Shown: positions 1 through 32,101, counted from the first letter of the stretch. The stretch: DNA of 64,000 nt from Lingula anatina (GCA_051362555.1 CM120649.1:1364001-1428000); one strand, 5' to 3'. Numbers and translations: made by a program. Notes: generated by a model not told the origin, from the letters alone.

Positions 1-1184
1 AGTATTCAGCCGTTTCCCTCTGCCCTGTAATGCACGATATAAAAGTTTCAAAGACTGGTAGGGCAGAAAAAAAACACTATAATTTTAAGTGAACTGCCTG
101 CTTTAGTGCCATCAGACAGCAGCAAACAGTTAAAATCTGCCAGATACGGTTACAGAGTACAGTACATGAGTGACTCAAGTCAAAATAATTATGATAAAAT
201 AATCAGCCAATCAATTTTCACTGCCAGCAGAGAGCAAGACATAAAACTGAATTATAACATAAGACCACCTATGATATTCACTAGTTCCAGTCACATTAAA
301 ATGAACTTCGTCGTCATTATGTATTTAGATTTCCTGACACCTTATATACATGTATATTGGAATCGTTCCAGGCGTCAAATGCGGCTTATCTCAGGTGGGA
401 CTTCATAAATATATAAAAGGCGGCTGTCGCCGCTTAACTCGTGTGCGTTAAATGATATCGCTATTAAAACAAATACCAATATTGGTCTGTTGATAAGAAA
501 CTACATTTCGAATTACCCAAATATTAAAAGAGTATAAGATGAATAAGGTTAATCTCGTTACTTTTGTATAAATACTTAAAAGCTGATGTATCCATGTGAA
601 CACCCATTTCTGAAAAATTGTTAGTTTTTTTTTCTAAAAATTGTAAATGGTTTTCATTTTCAGACTGAAGATTCCTCAATGCAAAAAAGCACATGAGTAA
701 CTGGTGCATTTGTATATCCTCAAAATATGAGAATGAAAAATAATTGATCACGTGTCGGTGGGTTATCTTGCTGTGACGTCATAACCTTATGCGACGTCAT
801 GTTTTTAAATACTCTTTGGTATTGGCTTATCCTTTGGCACTGTAAAAGATACTACTTGACTAGAATGCTGAATTTGACCAAAATGGATAAATAAATAATA
901 CATTAAAAGAGCAAAATTTCATTCAGCTTTTGATCGGGTTCAAATGTAGGTTGCAACTAAGGAACAATCAAATTTAATTCTGCGTTGCTTTTGCCAAAAC
1001 AGCAAATGAATCTCAAATGAATTTCAAATGCATGACTAGTTTCAAGGTTACAACTCGAAATAAATCCTCCAAAACCATCGGGTTCCTTCATTTAAATAAA
1101 TTACTAAATAAAAAGACAACCATCCTTTCGCTATTTTTAAGTGAAACAAGCACCTCGCGACGTAGCACGAATACAGGCCAGAGG

Positions 1185-2058
1185 TTAGCCAACACCAGAC
1201 GGGGGGCATTCATCGCCCGACACACATGCTCTTTCTGATTGCTTCCATATGGTATTCTCCGGGCAATCGTACATTATGGGTCTCTGGCCCTTCCCGTGGC
1301 AGTAGTAGAAAGTAGTGCAGTTAGGGCCGGGACCTGGTAACCACTCAGCCTTATCGGACTGACAAATCTGTGTAGCCTCAGTCGTAGCGCTTAATGGCGT
1401 TATTGGTGAAGGGGTGAGTGGCAGCGTGGATGGTACCCCATTCATGCTCAACACGGGCAACGAACGCTGGTGTCCTCCATCGTAATCTTGCATCGCCGAT
1501 CCGGAGCTTCCCTGCGCGGACGTCAAAGAAGCGCTCCGGTTGTTGCAGTAATCCGGATCGTAGGCAACGCAGAAAAGGTCCTTCTGGTTCCACATGCGAC
1601 CACTCGCGCACTCAAGGAGGTGCATCCTCCACCCAATACAGCTATAGTACTTAGTGCAGTCCGTCAGGTGTTCATAGAACCCTGTCTCAGAGGGGCAGGT
1701 GAAAACGCCCGATCTGGTCGTCGTCGAGGGAGTAGGCGTGGTTGTGGTGGTTGGTGTTGGTGTGGTTGTCGGAGTCGTGGTTGTAGAGGGCGTGGTTGTT
1801 GTGGAGGTTGTGGTTGTGGCTTGCGTGGTACTTGTAGTTTGTGTGGTAGTCGTCGTGGTAGGTGAAGTCAATGCAGTGGATGTGGTTGTTGGTTGCGCCG
1901 TGGTTGAGCGACTCCTCATCTTCTCCATGCTCAAGGAAGATGCGTCTATCGTGTAATTGCTCTTATTCATCCCTGTCTTGAACGCTTCGAGTACTTCCTC
2001 CTTGGCAACCAGCTGGGTTTTGAAATAGGCCTCAAAATTTACAATCAGACTGCCGTTT
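1185..2058 (-). CDS. Alternative terminal exon C of the SEA/mucin/chitin-binding type II membrane protein: C-half of SEA, ~70-aa Thr stalk, two CBM14 (peritrophin-A) domains, stop
   Basis: Acceptor tttttttcccaatcatttacag|A AAC GGC AGT (phase 2). Reads NGSLIVNFEAYFKTQLVAKEEVLEAFKTGMNKSNYTIDASSLSM, in frame with ORF 1185..1970. Six-Cys domains CPSETGFYEHLTDCTKYYSC...CASGRMWNQKDLFCVAYDPDYC (~1545-1697) and CQSDKAEW...CTTFYYC...CPENTIWKQSERACVSGDEC (~1206-1364). Confidence 0.88.
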
Positions 2059-3236
2059 CTGTAAATGATTGGGAAAAAAATTGATTAATGCACAAACAGC
2101 ACGACGAAGAAAATTCGACATGCTGGAAAGCAGGAGGTCAAATTCTAAATTTAATCAGTGTTGCCGTTTCATGGCGAAAGAGAAAACATTTTACTGGGTA
2201 GTCTGGAGATTATCCCCCTTCCACACCCCCTCCATCCCTCCCTCCGTCATAGGAAAATACGTACACGTGATAGCAGAGGATCTTAAAGCCCCTACGACCT
2301 AGATGCATATTACGGCTTGTCATTACGAAAAGCAAGCGTCAGTTAATTGCTTCAGCTGTTTAAGCTTCTCCAGTATTCAGCTAAGCTCCACAAAGGAAAA
2401 ATTAAAACAGCGTGAGTTGATTTTTAATTACAGAAGCATGAATATGTGATAATTTGAAAGCTTGAGAATATGTAATGAGGCGATGGGATTTCTCTAAAAC
2501 TATATGCGACACATATGTACCCATTTCATGAAAACCGTAAACATGCATACGAGTGCATTTTACCTAATATGCATAACATAAACAATTAGCAGATATTAAC
2601 TATCAATATACACATAATAACCGTGCATGCAGCGTTCATGACAATAACCTATCCATAATATAAACAGGACACAGCAAGATAATTGTCGGTGCATACAAGA
2701 GGAAACAAGCAAATCAACGCCGAGTATAAGCTTCAGCTTGAGGTGCTTCATAGCTGTACTAAAATGTAGTAGAAGCACAGGTCTACTCTAGAAAACAAGA
2801 ATGCACACAGCAAAATGAGAGAATGAAGTCAACTATGAAATTACATTCACTTACGTGTATTGAATCGATGTATAGATGCTGGGTTTTTTTATGTGGCATG
2901 GGTTTTGCACTTATAAGAAAGATATTTTGTTAAATCCGCATGTTATTGTTCGTCAACTTATTTCATAATTATGCAACATAATTCCAAACATGCCCAATAA
3001 ATCCTATATGTCATTACAGGCGCCTCGTCTCCATCCAAAGCAATAATAATAATAATAATAATACCGTGCAAAAAGCGCATGGCCTACCAAATTTGAGCAT
3101 GACATGTTAAATCGTGTCTGAGGTGTTCAATGCAAACCCTAAATTATATCCCTAAGGCAGAAGTAGACCTACTTAACCAAGAGCGTAATTTACGGTGTTC
3201 CACCTGCGATATTAACATACCCTGTGTAATCAAGCC

Positions 3237-5352
3237 TCACTCCCAGCCAGACGTTAACACCTGGTCGCACAGCTCTTGGTCAAAGGGGAAACAGCCGCGC
3301 TCTTCCTGGTTCCACATCAACCCGGGAGGACAGTCATAGAACTCCCCCAACTGCCCTGCCCCTTTGCAGGATATAAACCTAAGGCAACTACCAGGGGCTG
3401 GGACCCAGCCGGCTGAAGAACACATATAAGGCTGCCTCATAGTGGGGGCTGGGTTCTCTTCAACGTTTAACGACCCAAATGGGTTGCTCCCGCCATCTAG
3501 GGGTCCCCTAATGGGTCTACGTGTGGTGGGGGTGCGGGTGGTTGATGAGGCGGTGGTGGTGGTGGTTGTGGTGGTGCTGGGTGTGGTTGCTAAGGTCGTG
3601 GTTGCTAGCGTCGTAGACGACGTCACGAGTGACGACGTTGTGGTTGATGACGTAGAAACTTGGGCAAGTGACGTGGTCACATCGCCGCAGACGACCGGGT
3701 CGTAGCGGACACAAGTTCTCTCAGCATGGCTGTACATCCTCCCGCGGTAACAAGTGTGGTTGATCGGCATATAGTCAACACAGGCATAGAATGACACACA
3801 GTTGGTCGGATCGGGAAAAAACCCATGTTGTTCCCGACAAACAAACGTACTCCCTGTGGTCGTCTGGACTGTAGGGGGCGCTTCCATGGCACTGGTAGTG
3901 ACAGGTTTGTTCCGTGTTGACGCGTGTGTTGTTTGTGTACTTTGTGGCGTTTGTGGTGAAGACAATGAGGCAGTAGTGATTGCTTCGGTCGAGAGAGTCC
4001 CAGGATCAGTAGTCAAAATATCAGACGTGCCAATGCCGGTTTCAGTTGTTCCGACCGTCGTGCCGTCACTGGTTTGAGTTGTATAACTTGCAGCTGTGCT
4101 TATCCCAACAGGGTTGGTGGTATCACTAACAAATGTGTCAGCGCTACTGAATCGATTAACGACGGTGGTCTTAGATTTGTCTGAGTCTGTTGTGCCAGCT
4201 GTATTAGCACGTGTAGTAAGTCTCATGCTGCTTTCGGTGGTAACGCCCGGAAAAGTTGATTGCCAATCATTACGCGTAGAAACATACGGCGTTTCCGGAG
4301 ACGCTGTGGTGACGTCACTCTCACTCTGTGTGGTGAGTGGTGGAGTGACGTAAGAACTTAATGTCGAAACACTGACGTCAGCTCGGGAAGACGTTTTGTA
4401 TGACTGAGCGGTGGTACCATCTGATGTCGTTTGTCCCCGTGATGTGACGTCACTAAGTGAAGTTGTCACAGTCACTGCATCAGTTGATCTGCTAACAAAA
4501 GACAGAGAGGTGGTACTTTTCTCCGAGTAGGGTTTGGAGTCATCTGCAGCCCCTGTTGATTGCGTACTTGCTTCTGAACTTGGAAACATCGTTGGAGACA
4601 GCGTTGTATACTTTCCAGTTATTCTGGTTGGTGCTGAACTTAACGTAACTGAATCAGATGTTGACAATGTGTCCTGTGTCATTACAGAAGTATAAGCTGA
4701 TTCTACAGTTGTAATCGAAGGATGTGTAACAGACTGAGTAATAGCTGATTGTGTTGTTAACTGCGTTGTGCTTTGTGATTGTGGTGCGTCTGTTTCTGAC
4801 AATGGTGACTGTGAGACTGTCGATGGTGTTGTGTCCGATTCTTCAGAAATTGTCACCTCTGAGGTAGACCGTGCAGTGGAGACAGGTAGATTTGTTGTTG
4901 ATTGTGTCACGGTTGGTGACAGCTTGGTTGACATAAGTGTTGGTGCACGATGTGTTGTTGTTGGTGATGTGCTTGCTGGTTTTGTAGTCTCTGGTAATTT
5001 TGTAGGTGTCAGTGTTGTAAACGATTGTATTGTTGAATCGGAAGAAGTTTCAGTAGAAATAGCACTTGGTCGAAACGTTGACGTGACTGCCTGCTTTGAT
5101 GTGCTAGTAAAAGCCACTGTCGTGGTGGGACTTTTAGAGGGCGGCAGAGCCGCATAAACTGGCATCCTCTGCAGTGACAGTGATGGGGCATCGTATGTGT
5201 AATTATCCTTTGAGTTATTCACAAACGCACTACTCAATGTCGAAAACACTGCGTCTTCTAGGGAGACCGTTTCATTCTTGCCATCCAGTCGTATTTTCCC
5301 GCGTGGGACGGGTTTGAACGCTACGGTAAACTTTACGATTACGCTCCCCTTC
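3237..5352 (-). CDS. Alternative terminal exon B: C-half of SEA, ~440-aa Ser/Thr mucin stalk, two CBM14 domains, stop
   Basis: Acceptor ttctacatactatttcag|G AAG GGG AGC GTA ATC GTA (phase 2). Reads KGSVIVKFTVAFKP...VFSTLSSAFVNNSKDNYTYDAPSLSL, in frame with ORF 3237..5249. Domains CREQHGFFPDPTNCVSFYAC...CYRGRMYSHAERTCVRYDPVVC and CSSAGWVPAPGSCLRFISC...CPPGLMWNQEERGCFPFDQELC. Confidence 0.88.
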
Positions 5353-5744
5353 CTGAAATAGTATGTAGAACTATTAGATCACTGCTACCTAAACGGCAGT
5401 GCGCGGCAAGGTGCTGGCAGTCTACTGGTGTTGCCTCTACGAGTGAGAACAGAATCAAATGATCAACATGCAAGGAGACCAAATACAGCGATTTGACAGG
5501 GGTCAGTTTGGCATGCCGCATGGTCTGTAGACAACGCCATTTCTTGCTGGTACTGGTTATTGTGAAGAGTTAGTCTTGGCTTGCAGACGATCAGTGCCAT
5601 CCAACGTCGATTCTTAAACTCAGTCATATTTGCCAACAGAATGCCACGACACAATGTGCCAGCTCAATGCCAAGTTTTTTTTAATCCAGGCAGACATATT
5701 ACGCCATCTATCGTCCACGGCCGTGCCTATCTCATCTACTACTA

Positions 5745-6461
5745 CTACTTGCCGCTGCCTTGCTGGTTAGTAACGCCGCCGCCTACAGCCTGCCGTGCCG
5801 TATATCCATGGAATCCCCCCTCGTCTTCTCGCGGCGGGCAAATGGACTCGTCCAGCGCAATGCACGTGCTGTCGGCCTGGGACCACATTGTACCCCTCGA
5901 GCAATCCAGCCGCACGCCTCTGTTACCATCGCACACAATAAACCTATGGCAGTCCTCAGTGGGGAAGTACCCAGTACTGCTGCAGTCCACTGGCGGGCCG
6001 ACGGTGACGATATCGGACGGCAAGGTGGGCGGTACCGACGGAAGTGACGTGGGCGCTATAGCGACCCAGCAGCCGAGGATGTCGTACGCAATGCAGAACC
6101 GCTCCGCCTGGCTCCACATGCGGCCCAGCCCGCACGGGATGAGGGTCGCACGGCCGCCCGTGCAGCTGTAGAACTTGGTGCAGTCGGTTGGGTGGGCGAA
6201 CAACCCGCTGGGCAAGGGGCAGTAGAAGCTGTGCGACGGGTTTTGGGATGCGGCAGGCGACGTGTTAATACTCCAAGACGCAGACGTAGTAGTTGTTGTA
6301 GTTGTAGTTGTAGGCGTGGTAGTGGTTGTGGTGGTGAATGCAGTTGTTGTGGTAGCAGATGTAGGGGTCGGGGTAGTGGTAGTAATTGCAGTAGGTGGTG
6401 TAATTGGGGTAGAAGTAGCAACAGTAGTAGTAGTGGAAGGGGCAGTGGTAGGTGTTATGGC

Positions 6462-6503
<42 letters not shown>

Positions 6504-7080
6504 TGGAGTAGTAGTGGTGTCAATAGTGGTAGTAGCCGTTGTAGCAGGGGTCGTATCAACCGTGTCAGTTGACGGAGGCGTGTTTGGCACAGTTGTAGTA
6601 GCAGTAGCAATAGCCGCTGGGTTTGAAACAGTAGACGGAGTATATGAAGAGGTAGTTACTGAGGCAGCAGTAGTAGGATCAGTAGACGACACAGTGGTCG
6701 GAAAGGCAGTAGTTTCAGAAGCGGCAGCGGTAGTAGTAGTAGAAGAAGTAGTAGTAGAGGGGGTTGTAACTGAGATGGCAGGCGCGTCGGTTGATCCATC
6801 AGTGGTGGTAAAAGTAGAGGTGGTAGTAGTAGAACTAGTGGTGCTACTTAGTCTAGTGTCTCTACTAGTTGTAGGTGCAACCACGACAGTCTCATTGAAC
6901 TTAGTAAATCTAAAGTTCCAGCTCTTATCAATGGTGTACGGACTGTTAGACTGCGTGCTCAATGCTTCGTTAAGGGTGTTCTGCACATGCGTGACCTCGA
7001 GGTGAGCAACCCTGTGCGACTCGCTCTCAGTGGATGGCGGCTTGAATCTCACTTCAAAATCGACAATTAAACTGCCGTTC
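5745..7080 (-). CDS. Alternative terminal exon A: C-half of SEA, ~225-aa Thr stalk, two CBM14 domains, stop
   Basis: Acceptor ctttttcaccatttcag|G AAC GGC AGT TTA ATT GTC (phase 2). Reads NGSLIVDFEVRFKP...YTIDKSWNF, in frame with ORF 5745..7256 (ORF residues upstream of 7080 are intronic). Domains CPLPSGLFAHPTDCTKFYSC...CGLGRMWSQAERFCIAYDILGC and CSSTGYFPTEDCHRFIVC...CSRGTMWSQADSTCIALDESIC. Ends in four consecutive TAG codons (5747-5736). Confidence 0.88.
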
Positions 7081-7291
7081 CTGAAATGGTGAAAAAGTGT
7101 GCACGGTTTTAACTCTATGTGCTGCCGCCTATTTGCCTCAGTCGTGCCTCTTACCGTAAACCCCGACATGCGCACCTTCCTTCCTTCCAACTGAATTCCT
7201 TCTAGACTAGTTTTTGTTTTGTTTCTCCCCGCTAGAGCCTCGATTTCGTCTGCCACCTCTACATACCACCACCAATACTACTACCACCACC

Positions 7292-7510
7292 TGACCGCCA
7301 GAGGACGTTTGTGTTAGCCATGACGAGCCAGCTTGGCACCCATTTTCCAATAACAGCGCCAGAGAGCGTTAGTTTACCATGATGAGCCAGCATGGAACCC
7401 AATTAAACTTACACCACAAGAGTGCATTTTTGTTAACCAAGAAGGGTTGATGTGAAATCCGTGTCTTGATAACACCAATGAAGGGCGTTTTAATTAGCCA
7501 TGACCAGCTA
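7292..7510. repeat. Degenerate ~60-bp tandem repeat (~3.5 copies)
   Basis: Recurrent gcca-gag...(c/g)gttt...ttagccatga...gccagc motif. CCATGA/CCAAGA anchors at 7318, 7377, 7437 and 7498 (spacing 59-61). Confidence 0.7.
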
Positions 7511-10500
7511 CTAGAGACATCTATCGATGTTTTAGTAATTTACATTCTACAGGACTAGTCTACCCTGTCTTTATCTAAAAAATATTAAATCCTCGCCTTA
7601 GTGCCTATAAACGTTACATCAGCTATCCTATCTAGCCAACTAAAATGTGTAACGACAAACGAGGAAAACAAACAACCCATTACCTCGCCTACCCACTCCG
7701 TGGGCAGGGCCACATTCATATGGCTTACTACAACTGCGACATAAAATCTTAACATCTTAACATAAAACATACACTTGTAAAAAAAAAACGACACTTGTAC
7801 AAAAAAAAATCGGTATCTCCAAGGTCACAGTCATTATTTTCAACAACAGTTGGAGTTGGAATGCGAGATACGGGCCCGGTGATTCCATGCGTGTCTGACA
7901 CGGCCTATCTTGGCCGGAATCAAGTCAAAATGATGTGGTCGACGAGCAGTATTTTTCCATAACACACAATTACGCCATTAAAGTACACGTAGGGCACATC
8001 CAAAGTACAAGGGTGATTCACAGGGACGAAAAGAAATGAAATTTCTTTACATATTTCTTATTTGTCCATTTATTATTTCCTGTAAGCAATTTGTGTATTT
8101 CCAAATGCCCAATCCATCAATCAAATGTGAAGTAATAAAAGTGCCCCAAACAAATAGTTTCGAATTTAGAGGAAATTTAATCGTCTCTGTCCTAACCCAT
8201 TCCGGTTTTGCTTCTTATTGGTGGGAGAAGGGAAATCTTATAAAGGTCAATATTAAAATGGCAGATAGGTTTGTTAAATTCCCAAGTTTTATAATTATGC
8301 TGCAGTGCATGGCTGGGGGCAGTGTGTAAGAGTATCTCCCAAGTAAAAATAAATAATAAATAAATGAATCAATAAAATGTAATTAATTAAATACTGTTAG
8401 AGTGTTTGAAAATAAATATATAGAGGGAGCGATGTATTACATTGCTGTAATGTTCAGAAAGACATATTTCTAAGGTCTAAATATTTGGTGTGTTGTCACG
8501 TGTTTTGACGCAGGTTCTCCACACAGCGTCGCCAGCATCGCAGGAGGAGCCAACAAAACGCACACATGCAAGCAACGCATAAAGAAACAAGACACAATAA
8601 AAACAACAACAATCACAATTTGGTTTAACACGAATGGGCGAAGGAACAAGAAAAAAAAAACATGCAGTTAATTCAAAGAAGATTGGCACATCTTTGACAT
8701 AGTTGCACTTTAATCTGCAAAATCACCATTAAGATGAACGATCTCCAAAGAGCAGAATCATGCTCCAGATCGGTGACTGACCCCTCCCCCCTTACTAAAC
8801 TACTGATTAAGTAGCGCAACGGAAATTTTGATCTAACTTTATTCTATTCTTCCTCCAGTTTCAGTACAAAAAGACGAACGTATTCAGAATCCTATGTTCA
8901 TAAACAAGGATTGCCAATATTCTCCGCCTTCACTCAATATAACACAATTAAGATTAGTACGAGAAATCATGCACCCGTCACCTTAATACATTTCAATGTG
9001 GTTCGGGAACACTGACCGCCAACGGCGACTTCTAGCAGAACTGTGCAGAACTCCCAAGTGAATTTCAGAATAAATTATAAAAAACGGTCCAAATCGGACC
9101 ACAATTGTCGCATATATCCCGTTAACCCGCTTACTTAAGGAGTAATATGACACCGTTTGAATTTGTTCTTGTTTCTTCAAAATACTCAACAAGGACGTTA
9201 ACTTTTTTTACAAATTCATTTTTGGATTTTTTTATTCCACAAAAGGTACAGAAGAGATACCAAAAGTATTAAACCTAAAGGCTTTCTTTCGAAAGAACAT
9301 AATTTTTTAATGGTAAATGCACTAATGAAGCCGTATACATGAATTTTGATGGAAAAAAAAATACTTGGCAAAAGTACCACACTTTCTTAGACATTTGGAC
9401 AATGGTCAACGAAGTCCAGAACTCCTGAGGCGGTCAGTGCGCACGGCCACAGCATAAAGAAAAATTCATCACACATTTTTGTAATTAAGACATAGGAAAA
9501 TATATCAAGTGACAATTGCAAAAGTACAGATGTCACGCGAGATATGAAGATTTAAAAGTATTACTTGCAGAACAGACACGCAAAAATGAAGATTACAATG
9601 CTTAAATATACTGCCGACTATAAATATACTGTTCGACAATTTGTAACATAAACACTGCACAATAAGGCGTGGCGAAATTCAGTGTTTCCTGGTAAAGACG
9701 ACAAATATGAAGGGACGTTACTTTTATGAAAAGAATTCTTTTCACCAGATCTATAGATCGGTTTTGCACAATGAAAGTACAACTTATCACAACTCAATTT
9801 GCTGTCAGTTTCTTGTAAGTCATTGTTTAGGTGACGGAAAAGTGGTTCCTTTGTTTTAAAGTCTGGACTTCTTTATTTCAGAATAAACCTAAAATGTTGA
9901 CAATAACAAAGCAATAATTTGGCTTTTGCTTTTGATTTATAATTATGCAGCAACGATGTAACCAGCTACTTGTGTCCTATGTGGTTGGGTCACCTACCCA
10001 AGGACAATCCGTTTTTGTCTTAGATAAATTATTGGAAGAATGTTGCACTTAAAGATATCAGTGTTCATATTTATGCCAATTCCTGTCCATACTTTCCAGC
10101 TCGATTAAATAATTTGACAGATATATTTTTTAACATTCTGAAACAATTATTAATTTCGTAGATGTGACATTTTTAACCAAAGTGTATGTAGAAGGAAAAA
10201 GTTTGTTTGTCCAAGTCTTAATACAAGTTTTGCCCACAGCAATAACTGATACACGATAACACGATAACAAATGTGCGCGAATTTTGTGGAAACAAATACA
10301 ATACCGTTTACAAACTTTCAAGGAATAAGATGAATAGCAGATAAGAAAAACACCGGTAAACACTAATTTAAGAGTAACGCTACATCACATTTTGACACCT
10401 TAAAGCCCCTAATTACATTCGAGGTTTTCTTTTAGTCAGAAGTCATTTTCTAAAGGAAAACCGCAAATTTGCTTGCGGCCAGACTTGTATTTGCATAACA

Positions 10501-10886
10501 GCGAGCCTCAGCGATGACATTTTCAGATTGTCTGGATAGTACAGGGTGTCAAAAAAATTTTTAATCTTTGCTAAATATTTTGTGCAAAAATGCCTGTGTG
10601 TCTGTTCGTGTGTTAACATGTTAGCGTTGGTGTAGGCCAATGCGCGTGCGGACGAGTACATGGAAGACCCAATTGCACGTATGTAACCTAGCTTATTCAT
10701 TGTGTCTAATGGTAGGTTAATGATAAAGTCCAACTGCTGTGCTACCTTTCATTTTATTGAAATAGCAGTGGTAACTTTTTTGTCCCCCCTGTATCGTCGT
10801 CGTGCCAAGGAAGCGAGAAGTTAACCACGCCTATTCTAATGTAATGATGGTTTACGCAGATAGTACCGCGTGGCCAGGGTACCCAC

Positions 10887-10954
10887 CCAAACTTTGTCAC
10901 CACGCAGCTCTGGTAAGAGTCCTGCAGGTCGCTGGACAAATAGGCATCGTCCAC
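10887..10954 (-). CDS. Last constant exon (middle of SEA domain): VDDAYLSSDLQDSYQSCVVTKF-G
   Basis: Acceptor tgttttttttttcaag|GTG (phase 0) and donor TTT GG|gtgggt (phase 2); 68 nt. The phase matches all three downstream acceptors. Confidence 0.85.
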
Positions 10955-12451
10955 CTTGAAAAAAAAAACAAGATGTCAGTAAACAACAACGTGTGTTTAG
11001 CAGCAGTAACAACACTGGTTCAGGTTATACGTCGTGCATCTCAGTTCACAACACACTTGAAGACTCTTAAAATGGTTTTGCATTCTGTATTAAATTATGC
11101 AGTGAGATGATTTTTTTGTTCCTTTGTTTTGTCAGTAAATACAATATATAACTGTATGTAGTCTTATTAGGTACGTTTCTGTGACCTCGTTTGTCAACAG
11201 CAATATATTTGTTTCATTCTGGAATAAAGTTGTCGAAAATTTCATACTAATTTTTTCTGACAGCAGAAAAAAATTACCAAAGCGCCATTGCCCCCGTTTG
11301 TTTCTATGGGCACTAAGATCGGTCTATAATAACAGCACTATCATAACCTAATCCCATCCTTTAAAGTTCAGAAATCATCTTAAATTACCAGGTGTCGGCG
11401 TATTTTCTGTGGCCTTATACTGCCCTAACATTGATACAAGTTGTCCCTTAACAACAATGAACAATAATGAACAAAAGCACGTGGTGCGAATTTGGCATGG
11501 AAATACGCGCATAGATTGGCACTATTAATACACTATTTGTTGTAAAGACACCGGTAAGATTCGGTACACCTTAGCTTATGTTTTCCAAGGGTAGATTTGT
11601 GTAGGAGAAACACTGCTAGTTAATTTGTCAAATGCACAGTGGGTAACAACAGAATTCACAATTTTAGGTCACCCTTCCTCTCCTTAATTTTTTTCTAAGG
11701 TGATCAAAATCCACCAAATTATTTTTCTGGATTTTTTTGCGTTCACCCTCCTCCTCGTCTAATCTTTAATTTATACATTAAAACTTAGGTGGAGCAACAG
11801 AAGCTGAAGAGTAGCTATAATATATGCACTTTTAATTTCGTCTTCCAAATAATGTGTCTACAAGACTGGGCGGGACGCAGGTATGAGAAGGTTTAAAATG
11901 TCTTTGGGCAGACGGAGCATTTACCGCAAGCAATAAGATATGAAGAATGGATTCTTTATTTTACTCAGTCCTTTTTAGTTTTCGTTTCGTAGTTCTAGCA
12001 CCGACCTTATCGTGAAATCGCCACATTAAGCTTTCTTTCTAATTACAGTATCACATTTTGAATTTTCTTCGAGTCACCGTTAACTTCAAAACGCATTCAT
12101 TGCCAACAGTATAGTTTTAAAAACTGGTACGGAACTTAAATAAATAGATTGAGCAACTCTGAATGGATACTCGATGGTCTAAATATTATTTGCACTCATA
12201 TTTGCACTAAGTAAGGCGAGAAAAAGAGACAGCGTAAAGGTGGCTTTTGGCATCATTACACAAACATATTACAAACAGGTTCAGTGTGATATATTTGGTT
12301 ATTCTTGTCTCTCTCATTCTCTCTCTATCCGCCCATTTAAAAAAAAAAAAAGAACAGAACTACTGCCTTGATAAGATGTCACAGGTTCAAGTCTATAACA
12401 GCTCTAAACAAGTAAAAGTGCTGCCAAAAACCTCGGAATATTGTCACTCAC

Positions 12452-12561
12452 CGTAGAACAGAACTCTCGAGACCTCTCCTTGTACTGTATGGTATCCTTA
12501 TTTTCCAGCTCTGGCGTATACTGGATATTTACTATCCGGACCGAGCCGTTAAAACCTATGA
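12452..12561 (-). CDS. Constant exon encoding the SEA domain N-terminus: IIGFNGSVRIVNIQYTPELENKDTIQYKERSREFCST
   Basis: Acceptor gttgtttcttttgtag|TC (phase 1), donor ACG|gtgagt (phase 0); 110 nt. The F-x-G-S-x-R-I...Y-T-P-E-L-x-N...Y-K pattern is typical of SEA N-termini. Confidence 0.87.
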
Positions 12562-12903
12562 CTACAAAAGAAACAACGCAAAGTTTTTAAAACTATTCAT
12601 ATATACATCACAATTTACTATAAAAACCTATAAATTATTTACATTTATTTCAAATATCTTTCTTTTTCTGTTTAACTCAATAATTTCTTTTTTTTATCCA
12701 CATCAAATAAATGTACTTGAAAAAAATACAAAATGGATACAATGGACATCAATCATACACGAATGATTTACAACAATTAAATAGAGGAGATTATTGGAGC
12801 AGATTTAGAGAACAATAAACTGTTATCTTTATTCAGTATTATATACATATCAAATTAATTTGTTGACCATTGGATTACTTTAAACTGACAATGTTCTACT
12901 TAC

Positions 12904-13011
12904 TAATTTCTGTCGTGTTCGGTAGAGCTGTTGTCGTGACGATAGGTGGCACTGTTGGCAGTGGCCTCGTTGTGGCAGTGGTTGTAGACGGTATATCGGC
13001 TGGTACTTTAG
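12904..13011 (-). CDS. Constant exon encoding a juxtamembrane Thr/Pro stalk: AKVPADIPSTTTATTRPLPTVPPIVTTTALPNTTEI
   Basis: Acceptor ttttttcacctacag|CT (phase 1), donor ATT A|gtaagt (phase 1); 108 nt, open and phase-compatible on both sides. Confidence 0.85.
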
Positions 13012-13280
13012 CTGTAGGTGAAAAAATTTGACATATTCGATTCTTTGCTTATTTTCACCATAAGCATTATATTCACATATATTGAAAAGGAGGAGAATAC
13101 CATTCTAACTGAGTTTGGAATTGTCAAAATACCTGATTTTAAAAATATAATCAAATTAATATTTTTGTGTGGCAAAACTAAAAATATCAATTGTTTTAAT
13201 TTTTTCTATCTGCATAATATTTTAGGACCGTCTGAATAGCCCCTTACAGTAAATAGCGCCATCTATCATAAAGAACTCAC

Positions 13281-14943
13281 CAGGTAACGTCAGCAAATAC
13301 ACCATAACAAGGATGGATGCTAATAAAAATAAAAATGTTCCACACAAAATTGCAGACACTAATTTCTTTTTCGAGAATCTTTTCCTTCGAAATTTAATTT
13401 CATTAGGTTCTCCTGAGCCAAAAATTCTATGTCGTCTGCGCGGTGGCGTGTTGATCTGCACATGCGCACTTCCGTCATCGTCATACGAAAAAGAAACAAC
13501 TGGATGAAAAGCACCTGCTTGTAAAGATCCACCTGGGGACTGCGTAATACTGATAGGCTTGTAATAGTAGTTCCTTTCAGAGTCACCACTTTCCTTGTTT
13601 CGAATGTTTGTGCTAAGACGCGAGTCCGCATGCGCAGACACATCATCATCGACTACTTCCGGCATATCATTCTGACTGATTGACGTCACATTAAACGGGA
13701 TTGACGTCATGTTATCCGTGACATCAGCATGTATCCAAGGAGATTGGGAATTGTTTCTATTCAGTGATGCTGAATGTGGGTAAGGAATAAAGACATCCTC
13801 GCTAACACTACTAGAACTTTCACTTTTGTGATCTGCTGATTGCGACACTTCTTGTGACCGGGGTTTGGAGGCTTTCGGAAAGGTGGCAGCACCGAAGTTT
13901 TCGAAAGGATCCGATAAAGACTCCAGACTAGAATCAGAATTGCTAAAATAGGACAATTTCTTTGCAATGGTCCTGCGCCTACTGTCGTCCACCCACGTGT
14001 TCGTGAAAATCTCCCGTACGTCGGGATACCGCTTTTTACCTAAATAAAAGTTCTCAGACGCTGGCTGAGGTCGGTGGGGGTTAAAAGCGGGTCCCGCGCT
14101 TACGTTCCGCCACTTAAAGGGTGGCTCGTCCTGCAACACAGAGAATTTTCCCTCCCATGTGGTAATGCTCCCAAGACGGCGTCCGTTAGGGGCGTACTCC
14201 TCCTCTTCATCTCTCCTCCTGAACAAGTCCTTACTGGAGCGCGTGAGCTGAGGTAGACGATACTCTTGAAAGGGACCATATTGTCGAGCGAACTTCTCTC
14301 TGCTAACTGTCTCTGAGAGAAACGACGGGTAATTCTGCCTGTGTAACCTGTTTAGAGGTTTCGCGTCAGGATTTGGGAGCTGTCCTCCCGTGCTGTCTGT
14401 ACTGGAGTGAGAGTCCGAGTTTGTCTCGCCCGTAGAGCCTCGCTCCCCGCGGCTCTGCGAAGCGGTGGCCTGATCTCCGGCGGACGCTACGTCTTCAGTG
14501 TCTGATTGCCGTCGCAAGCCCCTGTCACTGTGCAGGCTACGACTACGAACCAACCCAGTGGCTTGTATGTTCTCGTGACTAGTTTTTCCTCGGGACGAAG
14601 ACGAGGCTGGCGAATCATCTGCCAGCCCGCTTTCCCCTCGTGACTGTACATCAGGCTCAAAAGCCGCGTTGTCTCGCACCACGTGCCCATTAGGTTTGTG
14701 ATAAAATCCCGAACTCCGCGGTAGCGTTGCAAAAATATCCCTGACGTCGGGATGGAATCCCGTTCCAGCGGAGATTGTGTTGGGCCCTGACGTATTGCCA
14801 TCCCCTCCAAGATGGCGGCGTCCGCCATTACGGTTGCGCCTGTGCCCGACGGCTGTGTAAAATTTCTTGTTGTTGGCGCTCCGATGCGGTAGCGGCTCCC
14901 GTTCCAATAGAAAGCTGCGGCGAATGTAGAATGGATGCTCACC
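13281..14943 (-). CDS. Large constant exon: ~530-aa low-complexity cytoplasmic region plus single TM helix (type II signal anchor)
   Basis: Acceptor tttccatcttctgtcgttacag|GGT GAG CAT (phase 0), donor CCT G|gtgagt (phase 1); 1663 nt open (ORF 13222..14907). Basic RRKRFSKKK precedes the hydrophobic LVSAILCGTFLFLLASILVMVYLLTLP (~13362-13282), predicting N-in/C-out topology. No in-frame ATG for ~400 codons, so the start probably lies in an upstream exon. Confidence 0.85.
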
Positions 14944-17900
14944 CTGTAACGACAGAAGATGGAAATGTCAACACCGTTAAATAATGGGAGCTGACTGCCC
15001 GTACTGTCTGGACGGGATAATACTTAATTAATGAAAAAATGTTAAGGAAATATTTATTTTGCAAAAATTACACCAGAATCATCTCACTTATGTCCAAACT
15101 ACCATATGCACCAACTGTTATACCGCGTATAACAATTAAAGCCGTCGTTAAACACATCATTTTGTAAGGCACATTGATATAACATTGAATGCGCCCTATA
15201 AAAAAACTTATCAACATCAAGAAAGTATCACCAAATTATTTGTTATGAGGACTTAACTGATACGCAAAGAATCCGACTGAATTGAATTTTGAATAATGGG
15301 ACGTAAAATAGACGTTGCTAAGATTTGTGTAGACTTTCACACCAGGTGTTAGGGAAGTGAATTCTATGTGGGGTAACCCCTCTGAAAAGAAACTAACGGA
15401 GGTAAGGGGGGGGGGTTCTGCTTCCTGTCCTTATTACTGAAGTGGTTAAAAGAAGTGGGAAGATTAACCCCCCTTGCCCTGTCCCCCCGACACACGCACA
15501 CACACACACACACACGCACACAGACACACACACACACGGGCTCCTTTGCCTATGATTTGTTTGGTCTGGGTTTGTTGGCTGTCCTATATGTAGGTTCAGT
15601 TCACTTGTTCGTCTTTCGTTAATCTCCAATATGTAAATAGAACTTGAAGTGATCCTGCTATTCTGTTTAACGTTATCCACACTGGCAGCTCATTCTCTTC
15701 ACTGTTTAGTATTACCATAATCCTTTAAGCTGACTTTAAGTTTAAGACGGGCGGAGCTGCGTCTGGGCAGCGAATCTCTTTACAAAAAACACACATCTCT
15801 TGATTCTATTTAGCTGTGACTGCCTGGCCGCGGCCCGCGTTACAGTAATCTGCTTGCTGTAATTGACAGCACGAAAATGCAGATAGGATATTTGAAAACG
15901 AAATTATCCAGCAATAGTACAGCACCGAGAGCATCTACAAAGCAATATTTAACTTGTTTCATTGCCTCCGTTTTTCTTTTTTTTTTCACTCATGCCTTAA
16001 GGCTTAAGGTAAAACTTCTTTTTTCGATCAACAAACAAGATAAAATTCAAATGCAAACGCTACTGTCATCTAAACCAAAAGGGAGTCAACAATAACGTTA
16101 AAATGTATATTTATCATGGAGGGAAATAGTCACAGAAGCTACAAATAAAAGTACATTACCAAAAGGCCAGGCAACAAGATCGTTAACACCAGCTGGGACA
16201 ACGCACGCGAAGTCCACCCTCGCTTCGGGCAAATACACTGACCAAAGTCACCTTGCGCTGTGCCATAAATCCGGTCACTTGGCACACACACTGGTCAAGT
16301 GAAATTGTTGTAATTTTTGCGCCGTTTCACTGTCGAAAATAATCGGGTTGTCGTTTAAAAGAAATATTTTGCAAATGAATAAGCTACAACGGATTCAGGG
16401 ATTTGAGAAAATGGAGGGGGGGGGGGGTACAAGGATAAAAATATATAAATATATAACAGAAGATGATGGCAGTTTACTATTTGAGGGCGCGGGATAGAAA
16501 AATGGTTTCTTTGAGAGAGAGAGAGAGTACTCGGTAAGCAATGTGTATATTATGAATTTTTAATAATTATCAGTATATCACTGGTTAGTCATTTAGCAAT
16601 GTCTGTCGACTTCGGGTGCGTTCACATATAAGCTAGGTCGACTATTCTGTGGGCAGCACTTCTACAAACCTTAAAATCCCGGTAACGCAACAACAGCTAG
16701 GCAAGTCAAGCGGGTTATTCTCCACTTCCCTACAACACATACCTGTTCAGGTGCCTCTTTAAAACATTTTCTCGATATCAGCTACTTCCCTGTGGCTTAT
16801 CGGTACCTCAATATGAATTACTTTCTGAATTATTAATTGATATTCACCAGTGTAAATTCGGAATCGAAATAAAAAATGTCAGTTTTTTTTCTGACCTTGA
16901 TTCAACAAAGTTACTGCCTGTGGTTTGATTTTCTCACTTTCATTCTAACAAGATACTTCCCAAGTATTTACTTGATTAAAAACGAGTTTTGGTGTAGTTG
17001 GAAATTGTATCAAATTCAAAGTAACAATCAGTCCTCTTTGCGTTTAGTTTATCTAATCTGATTTGAGTGCTAGGTTCATTTCATCATAATCTAACTCATA
17101 ACAACAATATATATAAAATTAATCTTGATTCCATACCAAACAAGGTCCCCTGTTCACATCTTACGATAAAGGAATATCTTTAATAATGTCAAAAATTAAG
17201 ATACAGGTTTACTGTAATTGCAAATGCGTCTTCTAAAGGTGAATTTTCCATACAACAAAAATAGAATGTTTTTTTTTTTTTCTGAATCAAACTTGGCGTT
17301 AAATACACAATCTTTATTTTACAAAAAAAAAAAAGCCAGATTGGAGATAGACAGATAGAGCAGAGATTGTACCAGTGACCCGTCAATAGTTCTTTCAGTC
17401 AAAAAACAGTCACTTTCACAATATCCAGTCTGTTAAAGACGAGTCACTATCTGGCGGAACTGTAAACTCACTGTTGGACCGCTGCTCGTACTTAACGCGC
17501 GACTAAGCACGTGCCGCGCAAACACATATTACAATCTCGTTAAGATGGGTGGTGCCTCCGTTGAGGCACTGGACTGTGAACCCCAAATCTGTCTAATAAC
17601 TGGTCAGTTACAATGAGATGGACACAGAGATATTGTCCGATGTGTTATTACATCCCTAGAGTGTCCAGAACTTGCCACAAGCGGGTAACACAACTGCCAA
17701 CTACAACTAGGTAGCCACTGGACAGCGGCTGCATTCACACGAGAACTTAAAGACCGAAAGTTGGTCATAACTTTAAGACCCTCTACTATATAATAGATAC
17801 CCTCGGTGTACGTGGATTGACCCAACCTTGCGCTCACTCTCGCTCAGTGCGACCAGCTAACCTGAATGACGCGTTTCCTCTTGTTTTACTTCCAACGTAC

Positions 17901-17947
17901 TCTTACAATACAGCTTTTCTGTATTCTTCTTAACGTCAGGAAGAGGT

Positions 17948-18077
17948 CCTCTACCAGGGCCACAGATTGATTTTCACTACATATTCACAGATAATGTCAC
18001 CCGTTAAATAACGTGACTTTTCTGCACTGTCGCATCTGAGAAAAGTGCACATTATAAAATCTGCGGCCCTGGAAGAG
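17948..18077. mobile_element. MITE family 3 diverged copy
   Basis: cctctaccagggccacagattgattttcac...atattcacagata...aatctgcggccctggaagag; shares TIRs and left interior with the 22631 copy. Confidence 0.6.
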
Positions 18078-18158
18078 ATTATCCTTAATTATCTTTATTA
18101 TTTAATGGATACCCATATAACCAAGAATACTGCCTCAACGAAAAAAGGAAAAACTCAC

Positions 18159-18164
18159 CAGCAT
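18159..18164 (-). CDS. Candidate first coding micro-exon (Met-Leu) for the SEA/CBM14 gene
   Basis: ATG CTG|gtgagt: perfect donor, phase 0, matches the 14943 acceptor. No other support. Confidence 0.3.
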
Positions 18165-19670
18165 TAGTCCAACATAGCCCTTTTTTTTCAAAATTTCTTC
18201 AGATGATCACACCCCGCTGTCAAGTTGTTTTTCTTTAACTAAATATTCAACATCAAATAAACCCTGGCAGAGGTCTTATCCCAGCATGCCCCAGAAAAAT
18301 AGAAATGACATGAAAAAAGGAGAATGGGGCACAGAAAACAAACCCTCCCGGGGCGTGGATTTCTATCTCACGGGTAGATCCATATGTTAAACTAAGACCC
18401 TGTCATTGTGACAGATTTCACTTCAATGGAACCATTAACCTGACGATGGGGAAGTCGAGGGGGGGGGGGGGTCAGCACTCCCATTCCAGGCACACATCGT
18501 CAAGTACCTTTAACCCTGAAGACCATAGAATACTGTCACGACACTGTACCCTGATGAAGATGCGTATAAAAACGCCGGCAGTTACCGTATACCCAGGGTG
18601 ACACATACTGCCATCGTGTCAGGGAAGTACTCTTGGGGACAAAATTACAAATGACATAGGCTAACATAAAAACCATGTACTTTAAGACCATTCCCGTTGG
18701 TTTTGTCTGCTGTTTTGACGACTGTCATTTGTCACCTTGTCTATTAAGGAAGAGGACAACATGTGTTTTGTGTCACAAAAACCAGTAGGAAGATGACATT
18801 CACATCTCTAAACGTCAAGCAATAATGATAATGCGTTACATCATTTAGTTGTGTGGCAATGCCCCTACATATATTGTTTACAGAGATTTGTGAGTTATCG
18901 GACTTCGTGCGCAAAATGCCACGGAATTGCTGTGTGGAATGTGTTTCGCCGTCCAATGAGACACGCCAGTGGAAAACAAGATGGATATAAATGTGAATCT
19001 TGGCGCTGGCGAGTCTGTCGAAAACGATGACAATTCGTCAGCGATCTACCCATAAACGTCCCTAACGATTTGTAGCGCCGGTAACCTTGTTTTGTTAATT
19101 GTTAATTGTTTTCACAGCGAATTCGACATATAATGTGTTATTTTTTTCGCTTTTTTTTTTCAGTGGCGGGAAAATCGTCGACCGGTGAATCACTGTCTGA
19201 CGCTTAAGGCGCTTCCACAAGACAATGCAAGAGTGGTTAACATCTGAATAAATAATTCGTCCTAACTGAAGTTGACAGTTTCTTCATCACAATCATACCA
19301 TCACAACAATTAAACAGTGCTTGACTTAGCAAAAAATAATACTTCTTTTTTATCAAAAATAATTTGCTAATGTTTTAGTTTGGTAGAAAATTTATTTAGT
19401 GGACTGTTGGGAATTTAGCTACGTTGCAGTAGGGCAATTTCAATAAATATGACTATTTTTGTCTCAAATATTAAGACAGATTTTGGGGCTAAAGTTTTTC
19501 CATCAAACTGGCTCCCAGGTCCCAGTTTCACAAAAAAGTCGGTTCTGTGGTTAGTTGACTAAGATATCCACGAGAGAGTTGTGACGTTATTCTTGATGGG
19601 ATAAAATGTGTGCATTTGTCCATGTAACGTTGGTAACAAAGATTTTAGCTAGGAAACTGACTAAAGGTTG

Positions 19671-19701
<31 letters not shown>

Positions 19702-20324
19702 ACACTGGCTCAAGAGGTACAAGGAGTGGATGTTTTTTCCCCTAAAACCTCCCCCACACGTGTACATTTATCCTCTCTTGTCATAATCTTGCCGTGTCCA
19801 ATGTCATGGTTGTCTAGTTCTTGTCATAACGCCCTCTTTACATACACTGCAGTGTCATCTCACTTATCTGGACAAGATACGAAAATGATACCATGCTTTG
19901 AGCAACGGGGTCGGATTTCGAATTTGTCTATCTTTCTAATCTTTCTAGCGTACGAAAGTACTGATGCCTGGGTTCATATTGCGAAAAACCAAACGTTTGC
20001 ACCAAAGTGAAGCCAGAAGTCAAAATGCATTCAGGTTTTTTTTCTTCCTAAAGTTATTTTCAAAACTGTTTTAGTTAACCCATACCCATACCTGTTTACC
20101 CCCGTGTCATAAGTCTAGTCTTTTTTCTGTCCTATTTAACCGCCCTCTTCCAACTGGCCTGTCACGTGAAGAAAGGGGATAAATTGGTGTCTAATGATTA
20201 AGGGTTGGGGTCTGGATGACAAACGTGATCTCCGCGGACGTGCCAGCCAGAACTAGACAGATAATAATGGTGTCAGTGACACAGAAGTGGACAACAGGAT
20301 GACAAGATACCCTATCTGCACTTA

Positions 20325-32068: not shown

Positions 32069-32101
32069 CGGCTGGTAGTACTCCTCTGAGGCAGATGTCA
32101 T
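32069..32101 (-). CDS. Candidate distal first coding exon (MTSASEEYYQP)
   Basis: gccattATG ACA TCT GCC TCA GAG GAG TAC TAC CAG CCG|gtacgt, phase 0, with an in-frame upstream stop, at the end of a locally GC-richer ~270-nt stretch. Its splice partner is unproven. Confidence 0.3.

Follow-up and report, generated by a model that had tools for sequence, protein, structure and literature searches.

A Lingula anatina gene with half of a SEA domain in its constant exons and three 3' cassettes that could complete it

The gene described here lies on the minus strand of a 64 kb stretch of Lingula anatina DNA, given as one strand (GCA_051362555.1 CM120649.1:1364001-1428000; hereafter the window), and appears to join a constant membrane anchor to alternative 3' cassettes. 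Clustered protocadherins are defined by variable 5' exons with their own promoters, whereas the variable part of the Lingula gene is 3'; their promoter use is noted in PMC4835542 (in part). Nearer in layout is Drosophila PGRP-LC, together with CG42235 and pipe (PMC6191721, in part), in which common cytoplasmic and transmembrane (TM) exons are followed by three duplicated 3' cassettes carrying alternative extracellular binding domains. The preliminary description of the locus had implied that its layout was novel, but PGRP-LC already follows the same logic, and the exon logic as such is not new. The domains are unrelated, however: each Lingula cassette encodes the second half of SEA, followed by a mucin stalk and a pair of CBM14 domains. 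Some 3' tandem cassette genes also show docking/selector pairing; in the window gene it is not above shuffles (best shared duplex -26.2 kcal/mol, with 3 of 12 shuffles as good, in limited windows of a single genome).

In its domains the protein recalls other families. Like the SEA membrane mucins (MUC1, MUC3, MUC12, MUC17), it has a SEA G-S motif and a Ser/Thr/Pro stalk, with predicted anchored and sheddable subunits, but it is predicted to be type II, not type I with a signal peptide and a C-terminal TM, so that the shed part would be C-terminal, and it ends in CBM14 tips. With the type II TM serine proteases (enteropeptidase, matriptase, HAT/DESC) it shares the type II anchor and a stem SEA with a GSVIV-like motif, yet it has no protease, CUB or LDLa domain, and no cassette gave a trypsin-like Pfam match. 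We know of no cassette array of this kind among those proteases. The Lottia gigantea shell matrix protein Lotgi1|232880 (PMC3374290, in part), compared by description and not by sequence, also combines SEA and peritrophin-A in one lophotrochozoan protein, but it differs in having several SEA domains and a single CBM (near aa 2140-2200), with neither TM nor alternative cassettes reported in that part of the source. A literature search that left supplements and subscription papers outside found no gene described as type II SEA-mucin-CBM14. What is new is the type II SEA-mucin-CBM14 protein with a splice choice two codons before the G-S motif; the gene layout itself is known from PGRP-LC.

We consider it probable that this is one expressed gene whose constant exons are spliced to cassette C and likely to A and B. 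The three resulting isoforms would have the anchor in common and differ in stalk and CBM14 pair, with a SEA domain predicted to cleave itself and a likely function as a matrix tether. That the gene is expressed and has three translated isoforms we hold with greater confidence still.

Constant exons, cassettes and protein topology

The feature is real and not a chance pattern. The four constant exons (exons 2 to 5 in Table 1) have AG/GT ends, total 1949 nt and end in phase 2; the preliminary description had joined them in phase, and its coordinates and frames hold, with the three introns between them seen in RNA. Splicing them to acceptor 7080 gives form A, to 5352 form B and to 2058 form C; the frames of the three run for 1094, 1354 and 940 codons and meet a stop only at their end. 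On the minus strand of the 64 kb, a scan for YAG acceptors followed by xGS[LVIT][IVL][VIA] returned exactly three, namely A, B and C. Their acceptor regions are homologous (67-82% over 33 nt), while over the first 70 aa B is 31% and C 39% identical to A. The cassettes are hence duplicated and homologous, with same-phase acceptors 3' of common exons, which is what marks a 3' tandem cassette gene. Hidden N-half SEA exons, named beforehand as something that would speak against this arrangement, were looked for with tblastn, and no second SEA N-half was found within the 64-kb window. Cassettes as separate genes are ruled out, as had been claimed: none has an N-half SEA or a signal peptide.

Nine raw-read runs carry the same species label, and reads from four of them (X1, X3, X4 and X7) were mapped to positions 1-20000; depth was low, about 1-12, and joints were listed only from three reads up. 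Nine X7 reads exit the constant exons at 14944. Their unmatched part aligns to 32070-32099 with 27 of 30 letters alike (the next best place reaches 18), all three mismatches being synonymous third positions. The exon there contains an ATG at 32101, with an in-frame stop upstream, and ends in a GT donor. The first coding exon, previously taken to have two codons (~1096, ~1356 and ~942 aa), has in fact 11 codons at 32101-32069, which gives a first intron of 17,125 nt and isoforms A, B and C of 1105, 1365 and 951 aa. A short first exon near 16 kb was rejected, depth being 0-0.03 over 15342-17342 in the four runs. In the ~32 kb upstream of the start codon (32102-64000) we saw no convincing open reading frame of at least 100 aa and no Rfam match, and Rfam gave 0 matches in the window as a whole.

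The protein contains one hydrophobic helix (aa 539-563, hydropathy 2.59) and no signal peptide, and no second hydrophobic stretch above 1.6 was found in it. A basic cluster lies on the N side of the helix and therefore, by the positive-inside rule, predicts a type II topology. The order outside the membrane would be a short stalk, SEA, a Ser/Thr-rich stalk and two CBM14 domains. The stalk after SEA differs in length, with about 219, 435 and 67 aa in A, B and C (61, 45 and 75% Ser plus Thr).

Table 1. Features of the gene in the window
Feature	Position	Strand	Evidence
First coding exon, coding part	32069..32101	(-)	ATG at 32101, 11 codons, phase-0 GT donor; read loose ends at 14944
Constant exon 2, long Ser/Arg-rich cytoplasmic region and single TM	13281..14943	(-)	Open frame, hydropathy, RNA depth, joint 13281->13011
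TM helix within constant exon 2	13362-13288 = aa 539-563	(-)	Hydropathy 2.59, basic cluster before helix
Constant exon 3, short Thr/Pro stalk	12904..13011	(-)	Frame; RNA joints on both sides
Constant exon 4, start of SEA N-half	12452..12561	(-)	PF01390 match; joints; best library match a newt MUC1 SEA repeat protein
Constant exon 5, remaining SEA N-half, common phase-2 donor	10887..10954	(-)	Frame; joints 12452->10954, 10887->2058
Cassette A, SEA C-half G-SLIV, stalk, CBM14 6221-6069 and 5984-5838, stop; probable terminal exon	5745..7080	(-)	Frame, Pfam, X1 right-strand coverage
Candidate poly(A) signal ATTAAA for cassette A, putative GU-rich stretch downstream	5680..5685	(-)	Motif
Cassette B, SEA C-half G-SVIV, CBM14 3839-3687 and 3422-3267, stop 3239-3237, donor 3221; internal exon	3221..5352	(-)	Frame, Pfam, joint 3221->2058
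Cassette C, coding part, SEA C-half G-SLIV, CBM14 1697-1545 and 1364-1206, stop; also 3' untranslated region of isoform B	1185..2058	(-)	Joint 10887->2058
3' untranslated region common to isoforms B and C, covered to the window edge	1..1184	(-)	Continuous depth to position 1; no listed joint leaving C

Transcripts and 3' ends

Gene reads in the three stranded runs lay on the strand expected for minus-strand RNA. Among the constant exons, joint 13281->13011 was read six times in X1, twice in X4 and nine times in X7, 12904->12561 four times in X4 and six times in X7 (with variant letters in X7 at both joints), and 12452->10954 once in X4 and nine times in X7. The joint from the constant exons to C, 10887->2058, had 11 reads in three of the four runs (X1 2, X4 4, X7 5, X3 0), and five of the seven read variants listed in C's coding sequence are synonymous. 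An unexpected joint with GT..AG ends, 3221->2058, connected B to C in six reads from two of the four runs (X1 2, X7 4). Most X7 reads differ from the window by 5-10%, and this run may therefore come from another population or a sibling species. Over positions 1-15000 most of its reads are 90-95% alike to the window, with many fixed differences and with indels in the 3' untranslated region (3'UTR), and X4 is alike at 95-99% or more; the divergence suggests either that the species is very polymorphic or that one label covers a cryptic sibling as well.

The preliminary description had proposed one type II gene with three exclusive isoforms and had predicted a junction to each cassette. The single gene, its topology and the junction to C stand, and one of the three junctions to the common donor was listed; A and B have right-strand reads, intact frames and the SEA comparison given below. 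In X1, the bin 6671-7337 at cassette A held ~8 read-equivalents, compared with 0 across the four intron bins 7338-10005, and cassette B held 4-9 per bin; in X7, B fell from ~12 read-equivalents in its first bin to 0.3 in the next bin upstream, across the acceptor. Coverage thus favours the use of A and B. Several observations pull the other way. Neither 10887->7080 nor 10887->5352 reached the three-read listing in the four runs, at a depth of about 1-3. In X7 the intron 7338-10672 is covered as much as A itself, so that A exceeds background only in X1 and, weakly, in X3, and in X4 and X3 the Thr repeats of A drew some foreign reads, recognisable by their loose ends. The bin 5337-6003, which spans the end of A and the gap to B, held 4.6 read-equivalents in X1 and 5.2 in X4, and read-through from A into B is possible.

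This last coverage, and the want of a listed junction read for A or B, would suit a gene that uses only two acceptors, C plus either A or B, for example with one long exon 7080-3221 in which B is untranslated sequence of A, or with A as a decaying duplicate. We regard this as unlikely. The frames of A and B are intact (444 and 704 codons, 12 of 12 Cys, canonical acceptors), and X7 covers the start of B and not the gap or the start of A. In a long exon, moreover, the stop of A would lie 2.5 kb before the 3221 junction and make the transcript a decay target, and an ATTAAA at 5685 stands 60 nt past that stop.

The three cassettes had also been described as last exons with separate 3' ends, and here the description has to change. 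Cassette B has a used donor at 3221, 16 nt past its stop, and is therefore an internal exon whose transcript shares the 3' end of C. Since the B to C join comes after B's stop, the C exon codes for protein in isoform C but is untranslated (3'UTR) in isoform B; the join is also in phase 1 against phase 2 of the C frame, the wrong phase for translation. A stop within 50-55 nt of the last junction escapes nonsense-mediated decay, and that of B, only 16 nt away, therefore falls inside this limit. Chaining of A, B and C into a single protein is ruled out by the stops and by this post-stop, out-of-phase join, in agreement with the earlier claim that the stops bar concatenation. The frames of A and B do contain three weak GT sites in phase 2, but no joint from these, or otherwise chaining the cassettes through internal donors, was listed in the four runs.

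For cassette A, no donor scoring at least 4/7 was found between its stop and the B acceptor; with the ATTAAA downstream, A is therefore probably a true terminal exon that ends at its own poly(A) signal. A separate poly(A) end for each cassette, as in genes of the PGRP-LC type, does not hold for the Lingula gene: B splices onto C, and the end of A is a prediction. The 3'UTR of B and C is covered to position 1, and the window therefore holds no fourth cassette; one to the left of position 1 is possible. In the splicing scheme that we favour, the constant exons, with cytoplasmic tail, TM helix and half SEA, are joined to C and likely also to A and B. C would be the default, as the distal cassette, and in the two deepest runs the commonest form; B would be chosen by acceptor competition and then borrow C as its 3'UTR. 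If this is true, cassette C acts both as protein and as the 3'UTR of B.

The intron before cassette A (7338-10672) had 1-1.6x coverage in X7 and weak coverage in X4, contains AATAAA five times (10758, 9877, 9236, 8843, 8074) and has no repeat copy elsewhere in the window; slow splicing is a possible cause, as is intronic polyadenylation yielding an anchor-only product. Upstream of A's acceptor, at a distance of 180-210 nt, the minus strand has a short GGT/AGT-rich run (7264-7291). It complements the Thr-codon repeats within A and B and could pair with them in the pre-mRNA, or it could be chance low complexity. The short stretches 17948-17998 and 19594-19643 are small dispersed repeats, not exons: in several runs they attract reads of either strand that have loose ends on each side.

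SEA completion and predicted self-cleavage

The constant exons carry only the first half of the SEA domain. Exon segment 12452-12559 matches PF01390 positions 3-33 at 26.8 bits, a narrow pass over the cut-off of 26.4, as the Pfam search proposed earlier was expected to show. With the N-half we retrieved two vertebrate mucins, and five of their SEA repeats went into a SEA profile of our own. On this profile the forms spliced to A, B and C scored 52.0, 41.8 and 41.6 bits, compared with 27.3 for the N-half alone, and ranked first to third among 65 acceptors; the 62 control acceptors with an open frame averaged 26.4 bits with a maximum of 36.1, and the best three of these were neighbouring acceptors into the same frames. 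Among the 65 acceptors, then, the SEA domain is completed only by the three spliced forms, which bears out the claim that each cassette finishes SEA. Against this result it counts that the profile was made from matches to the N-half and that C-halves alone score poorly (B 2.7 and C 3.0 bits).

The 36-aa SEA piece found three matches in 1.84 billion representatives. Two are SEA mucins of vertebrates; the third, a repetitive protein from a plant, we take as chance. In the PDB the piece had no sequence match.

The motifs of the cassettes (GSLIV, GSVIV and GSLIV in A, B and C) align with the GSII/GSVI of the reference SEA repeats. G-S-x-I-V is invariant in all three and lies two codons into each, so that the splice point falls two codons before the G-S self-cleavage motif, a position that the preliminary description had missed. 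In MUC1, too, an intron lies just before the SEA cleavage motif, although a literature search gave no confirmation, and the splice point may be an ancestral SEA intron. Self-cleavage is described for the SEA domains of mucins, enteropeptidase and matriptase, where the cut falls between the G and the S of GSVVV, GSVIV or GSVIA (PMC2958558, in part), and the halves remain associated until force parts them (PMC6954182 and PMC9578598, in part).

From the motif, cleavage is predicted at G663-S664. SEA would fold from the constant N-half and the chosen C-half, as family knowledge suggests, and the constant exons would then supply a 663-aa anchored subunit, identical in all isoforms save one residue, that holds a releasable glycosylated subunit of 442, 702 or 288 aa (A, B, C) non-covalently until it is shed under force. 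If true, this would be natural split-domain complementation, with one N-half accepting three divergent C-halves. It is also possible, though less likely, that the three isoforms exist and SEA stays uncleaved in some or all of them, as single-chain type II glycoproteins whose splice position is merely that of an ancestral intron. Not every SEA domain cleaves (zebrafish Gpr126 is without the furin site, and TMPRSS6 is unclear), and in A and C the cleavage motif coincides with a sequon for N-glycosylation; yet G-S-x-I-V has been kept in all cassettes although their 70-aa stretches are only 31-39% identical to A, and B's GSVIV is the enteropeptidase motif.

CBM14 domains, relatives and meaning

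The membership of the terminal domains in CBM14 is certain: PF01607 matches every cassette twice, as proposed earlier, at 46.0-60.8 bits against a cut-off of 22.1, and the number of Cys is exactly 12 in each. For the ligand, chitin is somewhat favoured, by a Tyr or Phe at Cys5+3 in four of six domains among other points. Chitin binding by CHIT1 depends most on W465, at Cys5+2 (PMC5459812, in part), and a Trp at that position is present in none of the six window domains, which tells against chitin. So do the best PDB sequence matches of the CBM14 domains: neither of them, Aplysia EHEP or Der p 23, binds chitin (PMC10619976, in part). EHEP shares with the window domains a C-x-A-Y pattern after Cys5. 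These matches, and a long cytoplasmic tail that could signal, make it possible, with somewhat less weight, that the CBM14 pairs bind polyphenols, other glycans or proteins, the gene encoding a tethered lectin or decoy with three specificities and a function like that of PGRP-LC. On the other side, chitin-binding residues are not conserved among true binders (same source), and the aromatic residue at Cys5+3 and the presence of SEA with peritrophin-A in a shell matrix protein (Lotgi1|232880, in the part of the source cited above) speak for chitin. Lingula chitin synthases are expressed in mantle and gut (PMC4595640, in part).

Searches for relatives gave little, which is a further, if weak, point against our interpretation: no ortholog was found by protein, ESM Atlas or profile searches, which were word-based. 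The distal part of constant exon 2 had no homolog among 2553 candidates, likewise weak evidence. Cassette C returned 13 generic CBM14 matches, 0 with precomputed PF01390, and in the ESM Atlas no usable match, exon 2 yielding only sub-0.9 leads there. A profile search with the six CBM14 domains had as its best match an uncharacterised type II membrane protein of Lingula anatina itself, XP_013392465.1 (LOC106160413; E 3.6e-60, 534 aa). Like the window protein it has a single N-terminal TM after basic residues and CBM14 domains of the same subtype, five in number, with 37-59 bits per domain on the window profile, on which the other 17 proteins scored reach at most 34; unlike it, it has no SEA, a short cytoplasmic tail and no long mucin stalk. 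A CBM14 tree of 43 rows is mostly unresolved, so that XP_013392465.1 is placed closest by profile, with orthology lacking tree support. The likeness hints that CBM14 proteins with a membrane anchor form an older family.

The protein would likely serve to hold an epithelial surface and an extracellular matrix together at three reaches, the matrix being most likely chitinous. In its full form, with both cleavage and chitin tethering, splicing would swap whole post-cleavage subunits, and exon choice would tune attachment spacing and break-away strength; we offer this version as a tentative one. To our knowledge, the membrane receptors by which lophotrochozoan-type epithelia hold chitinous matrices, such as gut lining, chaetae and shell scaffold, are poorly defined. 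A TM CBM14 protein with a force-sensitive SEA link and a splice-selected stalk length would be a concrete and testable candidate for such a receptor, and its one N-half with three C-halves 31-39% alike would offer a natural test of SEA folding and cleavage.

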